Source: Escherichia coli
Lineage (GTDB): Bacteria; Pseudomonadota; Gammaproteobacteria; Enterobacterales; Enterobacteriaceae
Assembly (NCBI RefSeq): GCF_003334305.1
Contig: NZ_QOWS01000004.1
Reading direction: 5' to 3' (one strand)
Length of the DNA: 64,000 nucleotides
Part shown: positions 658-27,130 of the stretch, one piece after another
Position numbering within the stretch: the stretch's first letter is position 1
Layout: every line of letters begins with the position of its first letter
Notes under the pieces: model-generated
Told to the model about the DNA's origin: nothing
What the model saw: only the letters and a program-made list of their open reading frames with translations
The model's database searches: none
Translations under genes and position numbers: made by a program

Positions 658-753
658 ACTAAGCATACATAACTGTTTTTAAACAAATTTATTCCGCATC
701 AACAATCTACCAACTAAATTAAAACATTTCCTTATTTTTAAAGAACGGATAAC
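658..753 (-). promoter_or_regulatory. CRISPR leader (AT-rich) between the last repeat and the cas2 stop
   Basis: AT-rich 96 nt immediately after the leader-proximal repeat; contains ACAATCTACCAACT, a motif shared with the leader of the second array. Confidence 0.8.
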
Positions 754-1047
754 TTATTGATTATCAACAGGAAGAAAAGAAACCAAACGTAACCCATCCA
801 AATCCACCGGAATACGTCTGTTTTCTCCCCAGGTCTGAAATTCAAAACCCGACTCGGTATTGGTCGCCCAGGCCATCACCACATTTCCGCAACCAGCCAG
901 TTGGGTAATTTGCTGCCAGATCATCTCCCGAATACGTTTTGATGTATCACCAACATACACACCGGCACGCACTTCCAGTAGCCAGATTGCGAGCCGTCCA
1001 CGTAAGCGCGGCGGGACATTTTCTGTAACAACCACGACCATGCTCAT
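754..1047 (-). CDS. cas2: Cas2 adaptation endoribonuclease (type I-E)
   Basis: 97-aa [37 protein letters not shown]...; ATGA overlap with the cas1 stop; adjacent to leader. Confidence 0.95.
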
Positions 1048-1967
1048 CAGCCGCGTCCTCGATGACCGCTATCGCCCAACGTTTCAGGTTCGGGGATGGC
1101 TGGCGGTAACATATCCGGCGCAGGTTGTGGCGGTTCAATTTCACCTGCGGCAAGGACTTCCTCAATTAACGGTATTAATTTGCCCGTTAACTTAGTGCTA
1201 CGGAAAATATCGCGACAGGCTAATCTGACTTCTTTATCAGGTTCTGCGGGTTGCCTCGCTGCTATTTCAAATGCCTTTGGCACAACCGAATCAAATTTAA
1301 TGATATCGGCTATGTCATAAACAAATGAAAGCGGTTTGCCACTATGGATAAACCCAATAGCGGGCGCATATCCCGCGGCTAATACTGCCGCTTCAGATAT
1401 ACCGTACAGACATGATGTAGCAGCACTGATGCAGCGATTCACAACATCGCCTTTTTCCCAGTCTTTAGGATCGTATTTGCGACCATTCCATTTCACACCA
1501 TATTGTTTCGCCAGTAATGCATACGTCTGGCGAACGCGAGATCCCTCAATTCCACGTAGCTGCTCCACTGAACGGCGAGCTGGCGGTGGCTCACGAAAAC
1601 GTAATTCATACATTTTGCGCACCACCTTCAGGCGTAGATCTTCCGTTAAAGCCAGCTTTGCCTGGTAGAGTAACTTATCAGCACGCGCCCCACCGGGTTG
1701 TCCGGAAGAGTAGACGCGAACACCCGCTTCACCGACCCAGACCAGTAGCGTCCCCACCGTGGCGGCCAGATGCACCGCCGCGTGGGAAACTCTCGTTCCC
1801 GGTTCGAGCATAATGCAGGCGACCGATCCCACCGGAATGTGCGTGCGGATCCCGGTTTTGTTGATCAGCACGAAAGCACCGTCCAGTACGTCGATTTGAC
1901 CGTACTGGAGGAAGATCATGGAGGTGCGATCTTTTAACGGGATCGGACTCAGTGGTACAAACGTCAC
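1047..1967 (-). CDS. cas1: Cas1 integrase (type I-E)
   Basis: 306-aa ORF; N-terminal [17 protein letters not shown] and overall close resemblance to E. coli YgbT as recalled. Confidence 0.95.
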
Positions 1968-2614
1968 GCCTCTGCTCCGGGTTTGATCAGCATCAGACCA
2001 CAGCCGAACGCCCGGCTTTTGCCATACCCCTGACTGAGACGTTGCAGAAATAACCCGGGATCGGTGACCGTAAGCATCCCCGTATAATCCACGCTACTGA
2101 ACTGGATCAGTTGCCGGGTGTTTTCCCGCCGGGGTTGTTGTTGTCGGTAGGCATCAACCGAGGTATCCAGTAGTGTAAAACCACTTCTTTCCCCCTGCGC
2201 TGCCAGCCAGTCCAGCGCCGCCTGTTGTTGATGCAACCAGATATCACGCCCTTCCGCCTGCCCCTTCACCTGCCGTTTCGCCTCCATCAGCAGATCGTGG
2301 CGCTTGCCCGCTTTACAGATTGTTGGATTCGCCCGCAGGTTGAAACAAAGAGATTGTCCGGTACGCAGCTCGGACACAAATGGTCGGCATTCGATGGTGA
2401 AAGTTTCACTTTCCGCCGGGCGTGCCTGCGAGAGGACAAAAAAGCGAAACGCGCCCTGGAGTTCTTCCCGACGATAAAGAAATTGCCTTTCTTTGCCGCC
2501 AGGGAAGAGATCCCACAGCCACTGATGCATCACATATTCACCGCGATCCACCAGATGCAGCAACTGCGCAGGCGAAAGCTGGCCGGTATGTAAGGTTATT
2601 CTTGAGAGGTACAT
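1964..2614 (-). CDS. casE: Cas6e (CasE/Cse3) pre-crRNA endoribonuclease
   Basis: Start chosen at internal ATG giving MYLSRITLHTG... (216 aa) with AAGGAGG Shine-Dalgarno just upstream; conserved FNLRANP and GCGLM motifs; the annotated ORF extension to 2752 overlaps cas5 and is rejected. Confidence 0.85.
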   Translation of the reverse strand: MYLSRITLHTGQLSPAQLLHLVDRGEYVMHQWLWDLFPGGKERQFLYRREELQGAFRFFVLSQARPAESETFTIECRPFVSELRTGQSLCFNLRANPTICKAGKRHDLLMEAKRQVKGQAEGRDIWLHQQQAALDWLAAQGERSGFTLLDTSVDAYRQQQPRRENTRQLIQFSSVDYTGMLTVTDPGLFLQRLSQGYGKSRAFGCGLMLIKPGAEA

Positions 2615-3342
2615 GGTTCCTCCTTGCTGAGCCACGGCCCCTGATTGACGGTGCGTTCCCCAAACAGCCACTGCTGACGATTTAAAGGAACATCCCGGCG
2701 GCGTAATATTTTGCTCGCGACCAGGCCGTCGTGTTTCCCTTCCCACCAGCATTCATCCTGAAGTTTTGGGAGTGAGACTTTCAGTTTATGGAAATGATCC
2801 TGATACTGTTGGTATGCATTACATAAGGCATCACACGCGTTGCCTTCGAGCAGTAACGGCGCAAGAGGTAATGCCAGCGGATGACTTTTTCGCCCCAGAT
2901 AAAGCGGAAAAACTGGATGGCGTAAACCGTCCTGCAACTGTTCGAGGCTGTAAGGCGCATCGGCTGTTGTTGCCACCGCCACCATCCACCAGGCATCGGT
3001 GTAGTAGTCGCGCCGGGAGATAATCGCGCTCAAAAGCTCAGGGTCGCTCAACTCTTCGCGACGGCTGAAATAACGTGCTTTACGCACCTCTTTTGGCATC
3101 TGGACCGTGTGATAATCCCGTGCCCAGCGCGGGTTACGGCTGGCGCAAACCACCAGTGAATAGTGGCGATTAAACGCGTTTAAGCGTTCGGTATCATCAC
3201 GCCGAATCCCTACCCCGGCAGCCAGTAGCCCCAGCAATGCTGAGCGCGAAGGAAGTTCATGGGTATGACGAACTTCACCTGGAGCATCGCCCCCCCAGGA
3301 CGCCATCGGCCCATGAAGCTGAAAAATCAGATATTGGCTCAT
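2596..3342 (-). CDS. casD: Cas5e (CasD) Cascade subunit
   Basis: 248-aa ORF MSQYLIFQLHGPMASWG...; position between cas7 and cas6e. Confidence 0.9.
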   Translation of the reverse strand: MSQYLIFQLHGPMASWGGDAPGEVRHTHELPSRSALLGLLAAGVGIRRDDTERLNAFNRHYSLVVCASRNPRWARDYHTVQMPKEVRKARYFSRREELSDPELLSAIISRRDYYTDAWWMVAVATTADAPYSLEQLQDGLRHPVFPLYLGRKSHPLALPLAPLLLEGNACDALCNAYQQYQDHFHKLKVSLPKLQDECWWEGKHDGLVASKILRRRDVPLNRQQWLFGERTVNQGPWLSKEEPCTSQE

Positions 3343-3352
3343 AAGCCGCCCC

Positions 3353-25727: not shown

Positions 25728-25751
25728 GGCCGGGCGGGAAACTGCCCGGCC
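25728..25751 (+). terminator. GC-rich hairpin directly after the ygcE stop (possible terminator, no T-tract)
   Basis: GGCCGGGC-GGGAAACT-GCCCGGCC. Confidence 0.35.
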
Positions 25752-25765
25752 TGAACATACCTGAA

Positions 25766-25903
25766 TGGTTATCCCCGCTGACGCGGGGAACATAAGTTCG
25801 ACAACTTAAAAAATGATAACAAGTCCGGTTTATCCCCGCTGATGCAGGGAACATAATAAAAACTTTAACTAGTTCGGTTTATCCCTGTTTTTACAAGGAA
25901 TAT
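25766..25903 (-). CRISPR. Degenerate CRISPR remnant (three decayed I-E repeats)
   Basis: TGGTTATCCCCGCTGACGCGGGGAACAT, CGGTTTATCCCCGCTGATGCAGGGAACAT, CGGTTTATCCCTGTTTTTACAAGGAATAT; first interval 32 nt, second 20 nt. Confidence 0.8.
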
Positions 25904-26357
25904 TAACTACACTCGATGTCTTTAGAATAAAAGACAATACGAATCGCACTTTATCAATTTTCACTTAAAGTATGAACTGGATATCTTTATTCATAAGAAC
26001 TATTCATCAACAGCGTATAGAGGCGGTTATGTAAAACCACTCATTAGCCTCAAAACAAAGACAAACTTCCAGATTTATTACTTAACCAATGAATAACAAG
26101 CTTAAAAAATATACTGTTATTCTAAAGAAAAAATTAACAGGCATTAATTCAATATTAAAAAAATAATAGATTAAAATTTCTTAACGATTTAAGAATCATA
26201 CAAATAACACTTTGATTAAATTTAATTTTTTGTATCGATAATTGTGAACCTCTCTGGCATGGAGAACTATTTTGAACATGAGGTGTTACGTGGATATGTT
26301 GCTTATTACAAGTACTGCTAATATAAAAACTTGAGAAAGAGATAACGGGTTATATGG

Positions 26358-26935
26358 TGGTTTATCCCCGCTGGCGCGGGGAGCTCAACATCGGAAACGG
26401 CTTCGCGGCGGCGGCGTCCGGTTTATCCCCGCTGGCGCGGGGAGCTCTACGTGAAGAATATTTGCAACACCCGCAAGAACGGTTTATCCCCGCTGGCGCG
26501 GGGAGCTCGGCATAGCCAGGCTGATCCGGCGACGGCCTTACGGTTTATCCCCGCTGGCGCGGGGAACACTGTTCGGCGGGGCGGTAGTACCACTGTTTTT
26601 TCGGTTTATCCCCGCTGGCGCGGGGAACACATCAACATGCAGCGCGAACGGCTGCCCCTCGCCGGTTTATCCCCGCTGGCGCGGGGAACACTCTTATTCA
26701 GTCCCCTTTTCCATCTGCTGTGGCGGTTTATCCCCGCTGGCGCGGGGAACACGTAAATTGCGACGTCCTGCGCCAGTAATTCAACGGTTTATCCCCGCTG
26801 GCGCGGGGAACACGATGCGGCAGCGGCGGCGGGAAGTTATCGCGGCGGTTTATCCCCGCTGGCGCGGGGAACACCTTTCAATATAGTCAGAAAAGTCTTT
26901 TGGCAACGGTTTATCCCCGCTGGCGCGGGGAACAC
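26358..26935 (-). CRISPR. Type I-E CRISPR array 2: 10 repeats, 9 spacers of 32 nt
   Basis: Repeats at 26358,26419,26480,26541,26602,26663,26724,26785,26846,26907; the three leader-distal repeats end GAGCTC rather than GAACAC; leader at the 3' side on plus, so minus-strand transcription. Confidence 0.97.
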
Positions 26936-27130
26936 TCTAAACATAACCTATTATTAATTAATGATTTTTTAAGCCAGTCACAATCTACCAACTTTATAGT
27001 ATCACACAAACAACACATCCATTATGTTAAAGAGCACTTAATCCATTGATTAAAAAGGTAAATATTTAAAATAACTCTATACAAACTAAAATCTACCAAA
27101 CTTTACCGCAATAATTTTCACTCCAGCGAA
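26936..27130 (-). promoter_or_regulatory. Leader of CRISPR array 2
   Basis: AT-rich; shares CTAA-CATA and ACAATCTACCAACT motifs with the array-1 leader; a second AAATCTACCAAACT copy near 27090. Confidence 0.75.

Follow-up and report, generated by a model that had tools for sequence, protein, structure and literature searches.

Shared elements and a candidate distal module in the two type I-E CRISPR leaders of an Escherichia coli chromosome

The stretch of Escherichia coli chromosome analyzed here, 64 kb in full (the window), carries both standard type I-E arrays, in the orders iap-CRISPR1-cas2 and ygcE-CRISPR2-queE, and raises the question of what their two leaders have in common and what each common stretch is for. 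The reading that we consider very probable is that two elements shared by the leaders are the two contact points of Cas1-Cas2 and that a third copy of one of them, farther upstream in leader 2, is half of a distal module.

The two arrays and the elements that their leaders share

The window is 100% identical to E. coli chromosomes annotated iap, CRISPR, cas2e, and cas1e around one array and CRISPR and queE around the other; the iap-CRISPR-cas2e order is that of the RefSeq annotation of an identical strain, and in identical RefSeq genomes both arrays carry a CRISPR annotation. Array 1, on the iap side, spans 19-657 with 11 perfect 29-nt I-E repeats and continues past the window start, whereas array 2, on the queE side, spans 26358-26935 with 10 repeats, three of which, at the trailer end, end in GAGCTC. 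Both have 29-nt I-E repeats, 32-nt spacers, and a 61-nt spacing, and since the + strand shows the reverse complement of the repeat, both are read on the - strand, where all features given below also lie. The last repeats end at 657 (the leader-proximal repeat of array 1 being 629-657) and 26935; leader 1 begins at 658 and leader 2 at 26936. The genome encodes the cognate Cas1e-Cas2e integrase in two intact open reading frames, cas2e (754-1047, 97 aa) and cas1e (1047-1967, 306 aa). The window Cas1 shares 84-99% identity with Enterobacterales Cas1e and matches the Cas1 chain common to PDB entries including 5wfe with E = 9e-175. The gene upstream of leader 2 is queE (ygcF, 27275-27946).

Leader 1 begins ACTAAGCATA and leader 2 begins TCTAAACATA. 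The (T/A)CTAA that the first-pass annotation had placed right after the last repeat of both arrays is indeed found there, at -1 to -5 (658-662 and 26936-26940); on the - strand this junction element reads TTAGT in leader 1 and TTAGA in leader 2, the family consensus being TTAGA/T. TTAG(A/T) at -5 to -1, next to a repeat whose first base is G, is present at both leaders with position weight matrix (PWM) scores of 6.4 and 8.1, and a review locates a Cas1-Cas2 site at -1 to -4 (PMC10011333).

The second shared element is the 14-mer ACAATCTACCAACT, at 702-715 in leader 1 and 26980-26993 in leader 2. A common motif had been noticed about 40-50 nt into both leaders, and it lies at exactly -45 to -58 in each, in one register and gapless. 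The - strand of leader 1 reads AGTTGGTAGATTGT, in which GTAG at 707-710 is the IAS equivalent, and a test for GGTRG at -54 to -50 finds GGTAG in both leaders. Three copies of the 10-mer AATCTACCAA are found in 64 kb (at 704, 26982, and 27090), on one strand and always in a leader, against an expected count of 0.04, and none of 100 shuffles reached three copies.

The conservation that had been proposed for this motif holds in 64 distinct leaders from other gammaproteobacterial species, on which the family PWM is based: the motif is kept in the same register, and none of these leaders has an indel between -58 and -1. G-54 is found in 61, G-53 in all 64, and G-50 in 58 of them; nearer the repeat, C-18 is kept in 61/64, G-2 in 63/64, A-3 in 58/64, and T-5 in 60/64. 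Docking-motif PWM scores of 18.0 and 14.7 place leaders 1 and 2 in the window's top four, and the matrix from the other species ranks the three motif copies 1st, 3rd, and 4th among ~128,000 window positions. Repeats, junction element, and docking motif together bear out the earlier assignment of these leaders to type I-E.

The 14-mer is the published conserved leader block at -44 to -59, which holds the CBS2 element for Cas1-Cas2 at -46 to -57 and its core, the "integrase anchoring site," at -50 to -53 (PMC5224486); a review gives the upstream element as -50 to -55 (PMC10011333). Mutating -46 to -57, or just -50 to -53, abolishes acquisition and in vitro integration and leaves IHF binding and bending unimpaired (PMC5224486). 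The docking finding is at its core already known, since the layout recurs in the 64 leaders and leader 2 is nearly the BL21-AI leader, of which 60 bp are sufficient.

TTAG(A/T) at -1 to -5 would thus adjoin the integration site, and TTGGTRGAWT at about -56 to -47 would be the upstream docking motif (IAS, CBS2, or upstream recognition motif). IHF, bound between these contact points at -9 to -35, would impose a U-turn that folds the -50 motif onto the Cas1 dimer at the first repeat, and docking in this form would limit spacer insertion to the leader-repeat junction. Other groups have demonstrated these steps on such leaders (PMC5224486; PMC10011333). Because one Cas1-Cas2 and one IHF serve both arrays, we reason that the distance from junction to motif would be fixed to the base pair while the intervening sequence would be free to drift.

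The IHF site, assigned to -9 to -35 by mutagenesis (PMC5224486; PMC10011333), sits between the two shared elements, where leaders 1 and 2 differ most. Its expected parts are an A-tract at -35 to -31 and a WATCAR-like core at -21 to -9. The putative proximal site of leader 1 (666-692, -9 to -35) has the core AAACAGTTATGTA at -21 to -9 with an A/T tract upstream of it, and its family PWM score of 19.8 is the window's best and about the family median (19.9). Leader 2 fits this profile poorly: in the corresponding region (26944-26970, -9 to -35) the A-tract keeps its register, but the core, TAATAATAGGTTA, matches badly, the near-invariant C-18 is absent, and the score in register 0 is 5.2. An alternative core, AATCATTAATTAA, is found at -31 to -19; the full-site register 10 nt upstream scores -3.6 and a core-only matrix at -32 to -19 scores -0.4. 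The IHF register of leader 2 is not fixed by sequence alone. Integration on the BL21-AI leader is reportedly IHF-dependent, a result attributed to Nunez in 2016.

The third motif copy and the distal IHF consensus

An extra copy of the motif, noticed near 27090 in leader 2 at first pass, could be placed at 27089-27102 (-154 to -167). It reads AAATCTACCAAACT, or AGTTTGGTAGATTT on the - strand, and its GGTAG (27093-27097, -162 to -158) lies 46 nt upstream of a putative distal IHF consensus, AATCAATGGATTA, at 27039-27051 (-116 to -104). Leader 1 has a putative counterpart, AATCAATAAGTTA, at 750-762 (-105 to -93), which overlaps the cas2 stop codon (754-756); both are perfect matches to WATCAANNNNTTR. 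Here too, a motif lies 46 nt upstream: GGTGG at 804-808 (-151 to -147), part of CCGGTGGATTTGG (798-810) on the P-V-D-L-D codons of cas2.

These correspondences extend to the sequence around them. Positions 27012-27102 of leader 2 (-77 to -167) match leader 1 and the cas2 3' end (-66 to -156) without gaps at 51 of 91 positions, whereas shuffles gave 28.7 ± 4.1 and 45 at most. The third copy is not random; together with the distal IHF consensus it is the remnant of a decayed cas2 3' end. Leader 2 would come from a duplicated cas2-leader-array unit, in which the cas2 remnant has decayed save for GGTRGA and the IHF consensus. A second module would be made of GGTRGA, 46 nt, and an IHF consensus, with the third copy as its upstream half. 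At cas-adjacent arrays this distal module lies on the Pro-Val-Asp codons and the stop codon of cas2. It could aid Cas1-Cas2 docking, or IHF control of the CRISPR promoter.

A serious possibility, which we are nonetheless inclined to doubt, is that the third copy and the adjoining IHF consensus are neutral relics of the cas2 3' end, without present function, and that the signal within cas2 reflects protein or codon constraint. The homology of -167 to -77 in leader 2 to the cas2 3' end is demonstrable, and the amino acids P-V-D-L-D and the terminal N-Q are themselves conserved. Leaders from 60 to 150 nt in length all acquire spacers, so nothing beyond -60 is needed; with Cas1-Cas2 overexpressed the distal module is dispensable, leaders of 60-100 bp acquiring normally (Yosef 2012, PMC3384332). 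The Salmonella CRISPR2 leader, moreover, has the same distal layout with a motif copy, GGTAA, that has lost a conserved G.

Against this, synonymous third positions at the motif are strongly constrained, to CCG and GTR, while every synonym is in use at the neighboring codons for Gly, Leu, and Arg. Pro is CCG in 55/65 codons at the distal motif and in 85/201 elsewhere in cas2; for Val, GTR accounts for 59/62 codons at the motif against 348/780 elsewhere, and GTA for 30/62 against 108/780. The distal IHF consensus is found in 45 of 66 related loci, at -93 or -104/-105, as well as in 7 E. coli variants and Salmonella CRISPR2, and it is kept in noncoding DNA at the four loci at which cas2 ends earlier (L022, L033, L043, and L045). 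Within the cas2 fossil of leader 2, the two blocks are identical at 19/25 positions, compared with 14/37, the level of chance, in the cas2-derived stretch between them. Substitutions in the module among E. coli variants hit N and R positions, and relative to the junction it shifts by 11-12 bp at a time (-93, -104/-105, and -116). Distal motif and distal IHF site co-occur (Fisher p = 2.6e-4), although the loci are phylogenetically related and p-values for the module are consequently too optimistic. The comparison across loci shows a pattern of DNA-level selection on the distal module; the module looks conserved, and a function for it is what we infer.

Other explanations for the shared 14-mer

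The docking motif might be kept mainly as an element of the CRISPR promoter or transcription start, and not for integration. An extended -10-like element, TGnTAnnnT, is found at -69 to -61 in K-12 and in both window leaders, where it was read from the sequence as TGTTTTAAT at 718-726 (leader 1, likely the CRISPR promoter) and TGATACTAT at 26996-27004 (leader 2); a consensus promoter scan made no call at the leader 1 element. The -10 box has been placed at -61 to -66 (Yosef 2012, PMC3384332) and the CRISPR transcription start ~50 nt upstream (PMC10011333), which would put the start within GGTRG. Given this overlap with the expected start, part of the motif's conservation could serve transcription. 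As the main explanation, transcription is improbable: deletion of the -10 box left acquisition unreduced (PMC3384332), integration in a purified, transcription-free system is lost when CBS2 is mutated (PMC5224486), and it is the motif, unlike the -10 box, that is conserved, with 1.8-2.5 bits at -54, -53, and -50 against ≤0.35 bit at -66 to -62 in the 64 leaders.

A recent duplication, or gene conversion from one leader of this strain to the other, would also yield identical 14-mers, and the match is exact here (14/14), whereas the K-12 cas-side leader differs at 3/14 positions. We consider this origin very improbable. Gapless identity between leaders 1 and 2 is at or near chance on either side of the 14/14 block at -45 to -58 (22/44 over -1 to -44 and 10/42 over -59 to -100), so the block is an island of identity and no part of a long duplication. 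About 60 other species carry the docking core in an unchanged register, and the 14-mer of leader 2 is invariant across 7 E. coli variants of this leader that are otherwise 90-100% identical; no conversion tract with identical flanks was seen in close relatives.

Slightly weaker still is the idea that IHF, alone or jointly with the integrase, binds the 14-mer itself: I-E acquisition depends on IHF, whose site is nearby in the 60-bp minimal leader, but the 14-mer is unlike WATCAANNNNTTR, mutation of -46 to -57 loses the Cas1-Cas2 supershift and keeps IHF binding and bending (PMC5224486), and the cross-species profile sets an IHF core at -22 to -9 and an A-tract at -35 to -31 apart from the block at -56 to -45. 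Of the "IHF/integrase docking" role given to the conserved block at first pass, integrase docking with the involvement of IHF stands, but IHF binds at -9 to -35 and not at the 14-mer. Our preferred reading remains that of an upstream Cas1-Cas2 contact point.

Adaptation competence and comparison with known systems

Both arrays had been proposed to be competent for adaptation. This is well supported for leader 2, given its near identity to the BL21-AI leader, which acquires spacers: 60 bp of it are sufficient and 40 bp insufficient, and K-12 array II, with a leader of BL21-AI type, also expands (Yosef 2012, PMC3384332). For leader 1 we infer competence, as it has every conserved element, cas1 and cas2 are both intact, and leader-end spacers differ among related strains. 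GF47 and OkiPb01694 carry window spacers a5 and a10 and then each its own leader-proximal spacer; at the queE-side array, BL21 and AZ147 show the same pattern. This polymorphism is indirect evidence for a presumed dependence of spacer acquisition at the window leaders on IHF and the -50 motif.

Among the closest known systems is the queE-adjacent BL21-AI leader, which is also the K-12 array II leader. A single mismatch in 369 aligned nucleotides separates leader 2 from it, and over -1 to -60 the two are identical; the BL21-AI array has the repeat and the queE-adjacent position of window array 2 but different spacers. This leader was the substrate of Yosef 2012 (PMC3384332). Published work on BL21-AI has defined just the first 60 bp as needed and leaves the elements at -104 to -116 and -158 to -162 undiscussed. 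The same leader is said to have been used also by Nunez in 2016 and by Wright in 2017 (PDB 5WFE).

The K-12 CRISPR1 (CRISPR 2.1) leader, with its IBS at -9 to -35 and IAS/CBS2 at -46 to -57 (Yoganand et al. 2017, PMC5224486), shares register and architecture with leader 1, which like it lies between cas2 and the first repeat and is identical to it at 65/96 positions. K-12 has ACAACCCACCAACC in the same register, giving the published IAS GTGG where the window has GTAG, and this appears to be a natural A/G polymorphism, with 35 of the 64 leaders having A and 25 having G at position -51. In the window, cas2 has 3 codons more than in K-12, so the noncoding leader measures 96 nt there instead of 105 nt. 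Leader 1 has a perfect distal IHF consensus, whereas K-12 has one mismatch (AAACAAAGAATTA).

Type I-F leaders have proximal and distal IHF sites and flanking motifs folded around Cas1-2/3, and E. coli I-E has been taken as the single-IHF case (bioRxiv 10.1101/2023.05.26.542337). Two-IHF leaders (I-F, I-C, and some I-E) have a second, conserved consensus 70-120 bp upstream, and such a consensus is present here. As in I-F, two IHF consensus sites lie ~70-95 bp apart, short motif repeats reach up to ~165 bp upstream, and the module spacing shifts in whole helical turns; the I-F motifs flanking the distal IHF site, however, are inverted repeats bound by Cas2, whereas the GGTRGA copies of the window are direct repeats. 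From the literature, the phage lambda attP intasome offers a further parallel, in that a sequence-specific bend likewise delivers a distant accessory site to a core-bound recombinase, which is a tyrosine recombinase in lambda and Cas1 here; no excision pathway takes part at the CRISPR leader.

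Arrays and their genomic setting

Segments flanking both arrays are 100% identical to E. coli chromosomes, and in those genomes the annotation reads iap / CRISPR / cas2e / cas1e around the first array and CRISPR / queE around the second. The + strand of the window carries the reverse complement of the type I-E repeat in both cases; transcription of both arrays thus runs along the - strand, and on the + strand each leader comes after the final repeat. The leader–repeat junctions fall at 657|658 (array 1) and 26935|26936 (array 2), and negative positions here count leader nucleotides upstream from these junctions. 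cas2 (754-1047) and cas1 (1047-1967) are intact ORFs, as are the other cas ORFs as far as cas3. Tandem Repeats Finder reported neither array, because the spacers are unique, and both were found instead by direct-repeat and pattern searches. The three trailer-end repeats of array 2 (26358-26508) end in GAGCTC, not GAACAC; in K-12, the cas-side repeats have GAACTC at this end. The first repeat positions, read in transcript orientation, therefore vary both within and between arrays.

A degenerate mini-array of three repeats occupies 25765-25903, with ygcE on one side and array 2 on the other; its repeats decay toward the queE side, where the last reads CGGTTTATCCCTGTTTTTACAAGGAATAT. A search for a leader returned no motif score above 12 for the mini-array and zero leader-motif hits in the 450 nt after it (25904-26357); this fits the report that a second BL21 array, which lacks a conserved leader, does not acquire spacers (Yosef 2012, PMC3384332). 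Other repeated elements in the window include three REP-like 26-mers (ACGCGTCTTATCAGGCCTACAAG...) at 10696-10721, 17200-17225 and 40430-40455, and a pair of 300-nt segments (40678-40977 and 42042-42341) with 73% identity, 1364 nt apart, which are probably neighbouring paralogous genes.

The shared leader block

The first-pass annotation described a motif common to the leaders of array 1 (iap-CRISPR1-cas2; leader 1) and array 2 (ygcE-CRISPR2-queE; leader 2), with an additional copy in the latter, and this description is borne out. Leader 1 starts with ACTAAGCATA and leader 2 with TCTAAACATA, and the 14-mer ACAATCTACCAACT occupies 702-715 and 26980-26993, at -45..-58 and in identical register in both. 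Gapless identity is 14/14 over these positions, between flanks of 22/44 (-1..-44) and 10/42 (-59..-100), so the block forms an island of identity and does not belong to a long duplication. In the 64 kb the 10-mer AATCTACCAA has exactly three occurrences, all of them in leaders and on one strand, against an expected count of 0.04; the third copy, TTTGGTAGATTTT in leader 2 (27089-27102), places its GGTAG at -162..-158.

This block is already known. In the cas-adjacent leader of K-12, Yoganand et al. mapped the IHF site to -9..-35 and a second conserved region to -44..-59; mutation of -46..-57 (CBS2), or of -50..-53 alone (GTGG, the "integrase anchoring site"), abolished acquisition and in vitro integration and left IHF binding and bending intact (PMC5224486). 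A 2023 review draws the same map, with a Cas1–Cas2 site at -1..-4 and IHF at -9..-35; through the IHF bend, an upstream element (-50..-55) reaches Cas1 (PMC10011333). The K-12 leader that we fetched has ACAACCCACCAACC in the same register as the 14-mer, corresponding to the published GTGG, whereas -50..-53 reads GTAG in the window. On the published map, the two elements shared by the leaders are therefore the two integrase contact points, with the IHF site between them. Of the proposed role as an IHF/integrase docking region, the integrase (Cas1) part stands and the IHF part does not, as IHF binds at -9..-35: the motif was correctly seen and mislabelled as an IHF site. IHF would bend -9..-35, the -50 motif would then dock on Cas1, and integration would follow at the junction, steps demonstrated by other groups on leaders that match those of the window exactly or almost exactly; the base-pair-exact register in both leaders may reflect the geometry of the IHF U-turn. 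The block is textbook-level for type I-E and accounts for the restriction of new spacers to the leader end. It can be relied on to mark an I-E leader competent for adaptation, and it should be labelled a Cas1 site, not an IHF site.

To place the block in the context of other I-E systems, a Cas1e protein alignment was used to fetch 80 loci from one-genome-per-species contigs, and anchoring at the first repeat yielded 64 distinct leaders from Enterobacterales and several marine gammaproteobacterial genera. Absence of the motif from other I-E leaders had been named as grounds for rejecting the assignment; it proved to be conserved in this set. Zero indels are needed over -58..-1, and information content forms four peaks: -56..-45, with consensus TTGGTRGAWTTT (G-54 in 61/64, G-53 in 64/64, G-50 in 58/64, and A in 35 or G in 25 at -51); an A-tract at -35..-31; an IHF-like core at -22..-9 (C-18 in 61/64); and TTAGA at -5..-1 (G-2 in 63/64). 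With a matrix built from these 64 foreign leaders, the three GGTAG sites of the window rank 1st, 3rd and 4th of ~128,000 positions. One fetched locus, on a 4.5-kb contig of a 'Bacillota bacterium' MAG (L003, JAEWTL010000035.1), carries cas1-cas2-leader-array 99% identical to the E. coli type and is most likely mis-binned Enterobacteriaceae.

Promoter function does not explain conservation of the motif, as -66..-62, where E. coli has its -10 box, holds ≤0.35 bit among the 64 leaders. A consensus promoter scan of the - strand of both leaders found nothing relevant. Extended -10-like elements (TGnTAnnnT), identified by eye and matched to Yosef 2012, are present at -69..-61 (718-726 and 26996-27004) and also in K-12; a transcript from them would start within the GGTRG docking motif, and these bases may thus serve both transcription initiation and integrase docking. 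Removal of the -10 box did not reduce acquisition (PMC3384332).

Proximal IHF sites and competence for adaptation

The two leaders differ in the IHF site of the known ~60-bp unit. The site of leader 1 has a family IHF matrix score of 19.8, the highest in the window and the same as the family median; that of leader 2, in the same register, scores 5.2 and is missing C-18, with the A-tract and the TTA at -11..-9 both in register. Leader 2 also contains an alternative IHF core, AATCATTAATTAA, 10 bp upstream at -31..-19, and this shifted site is improved in the E. coli variant WCHEC96200. The family PWM prefers register 0 over the 10-bp shift, the full site 10 nt upstream scoring -3.6 and the core-only matrix -0.4 at -32..-19. 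A shifted bend apex would displace the -50 motif relative to the junction; given one integrase for both leaders and a -50 motif at the same place in each, we infer that the bend apex is probably the same in leaders 1 and 2.

Both arrays had been proposed to be competent for adaptation, and for array 2 this is supported by a leader shown to acquire spacers: leader 2 has 1 mismatch to the BL21-AI leader in 369 aligned positions, and none within -1..-60. In the BL21-AI array, 60 bp of leader were sufficient and 40 bp were not, and the K-12 array with this same leader expands as well (Yosef et al., PMC3384332). The case for leader 1 is indirect and points to probable competence: every conserved element is present with high scores, and cas1 and cas2 are intact. 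GF47 and OkiPb01694, whose leader is identical to leader 1, have window spacers a5 and a10 in common, after which each has its own leader-end spacer; in the queE-side array, BL21 and AZ147 likewise share spacers and differ in the leader-end one. Among relatives of the window strain, differences are mostly internal spacer deletions. Two queE-side arrays, from E. coli strain 41 and E. coli AZ147, each have one tandem-duplicated spacer (CGCCAGCAGCAC... and TCCACGGCTACG..., respectively).

A candidate distal module

Further upstream, both leaders pair a GGTRGA motif with an IHF consensus. In leader 2 the IHF consensus is perfect (AATCAATGGATTA, 27039-27051, -116..-104) and the motif is the third copy; both are kept in seven E. 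coli variants (90-100% identical overall), whose substitutions in these elements fall at N positions (IHF site) and at the R position (motif). The Salmonella enterica queE-adjacent array has the same layout, with a spacing of 45 versus 46 and the motif GGTAA; the four other queE neighbourhoods examined belong to genomes with no array beside queE, leaving the Salmonella loci alone informative. In leader 1 the IHF consensus AATCAATAAGTTA (-105..-93) overlaps the cas2 stop codon, and the motif CCGGTGGATTTGG lies 46 nt upstream of it in the cas2 codons P-V-D-L-D. The distal IHF site is closely followed downstream by a TCTTTAA box (741-749 and 27023-27031; about -86..-76 in locus L098), which is conserved among leaders 1 and 2, the CRISPR2 leader of Salmonella and, in other genera, many leaders adjacent to cas genes (e.g. 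GATCTTTAAAAAT).

The distal IHF consensus is found in 45/66 loci, at -93 (31, within 1 nt), -104/-105 (13) or -103 (1); together with -116 in E. coli CRISPR2, the positions -93 and -104/-105 form steps of 11-12 bp. It remains, as non-coding sequence, in four loci where cas2 ends earlier. At the motif, Val is encoded by GTA or GTG in 59/62 cases, against 348/780 for Val elsewhere in cas2 (p = 1.6e-16), and Pro by CCG in 55/65, against 85/201 (p = 1.6e-9); loci without the motif tend to be without an IHF site as well (Fisher p = 2.6e-4). None of these p-values is corrected for shared ancestry, and the internal control is the freely varying neighbouring Gly, Leu and Arg codons, for which all synonyms are used. 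A gapless alignment of leader 2 (-167..-77) with leader 1 plus cas2 (-156..-66) gives 51/91 identity (shuffles, 28.7 +/- 4.1; maximum 45 in 20,000), with 19/25 within the two blocks and 14/37 in the cas2-derived stretch between them. Leader 2 thus carries a decayed cas2 3' end in which the two motifs alone are preserved. We considered whether GTGTTGTTTGTG, which lies upstream of the motif in leader 2, might be a decayed repeat, and rejected this; compared with Salmonella and leader 1, it is an 11-12-nt insertion specific to E. coli.

From these patterns we infer DNA-level selection on the distal module, which could act as a second bend and docking site, like the two-IHF leaders of I-F and "some I-E" systems, or else serve the CRISPR promoter as an upstream element that depends on IHF. 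We put forward, as a doubtful proposal, that the functional E. coli-type I-E leader spans ~150-165 bp, not the usually described 60-bp unit, and comprises the proximal unit and this module. The distal IHF site would be written over the cas2 stop codon, and a second Cas1-type docking motif (GGTRGA) would make use of synonymous positions in the Pro-Val-Asp codons of cas2. Whole numbers of helical turns would separate the module from the proximal unit, and orphan arrays such as CRISPR2 would keep exactly these two elements of an otherwise decayed cas2 fragment. The module might raise integration efficiency or fidelity at native low Cas1–Cas2 levels or, alternatively, couple integration to CRISPR transcription at those levels, a role that would be undetectable in over-expression assays; it is dispensable under Cas1–Cas2 over-expression (PMC3384332).

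The distal module may add something beyond the known leader, and may also have been described already. Were it functional, the cas2 3' end would be dual-use, serving as protein-coding sequence and leader, and leader fossils could trace the origin of orphan arrays from cas-adjacent ones. Two-IHF leaders have been reported for I-F and "some I-E" systems in a 2023 preprint that assigns E. coli I-E one IHF site and one motif (bioRxiv 10.1101/2023.05.26.542337); a functional distal module would bring the E. coli model closer to the two-IHF I-F leaders than is currently stated.
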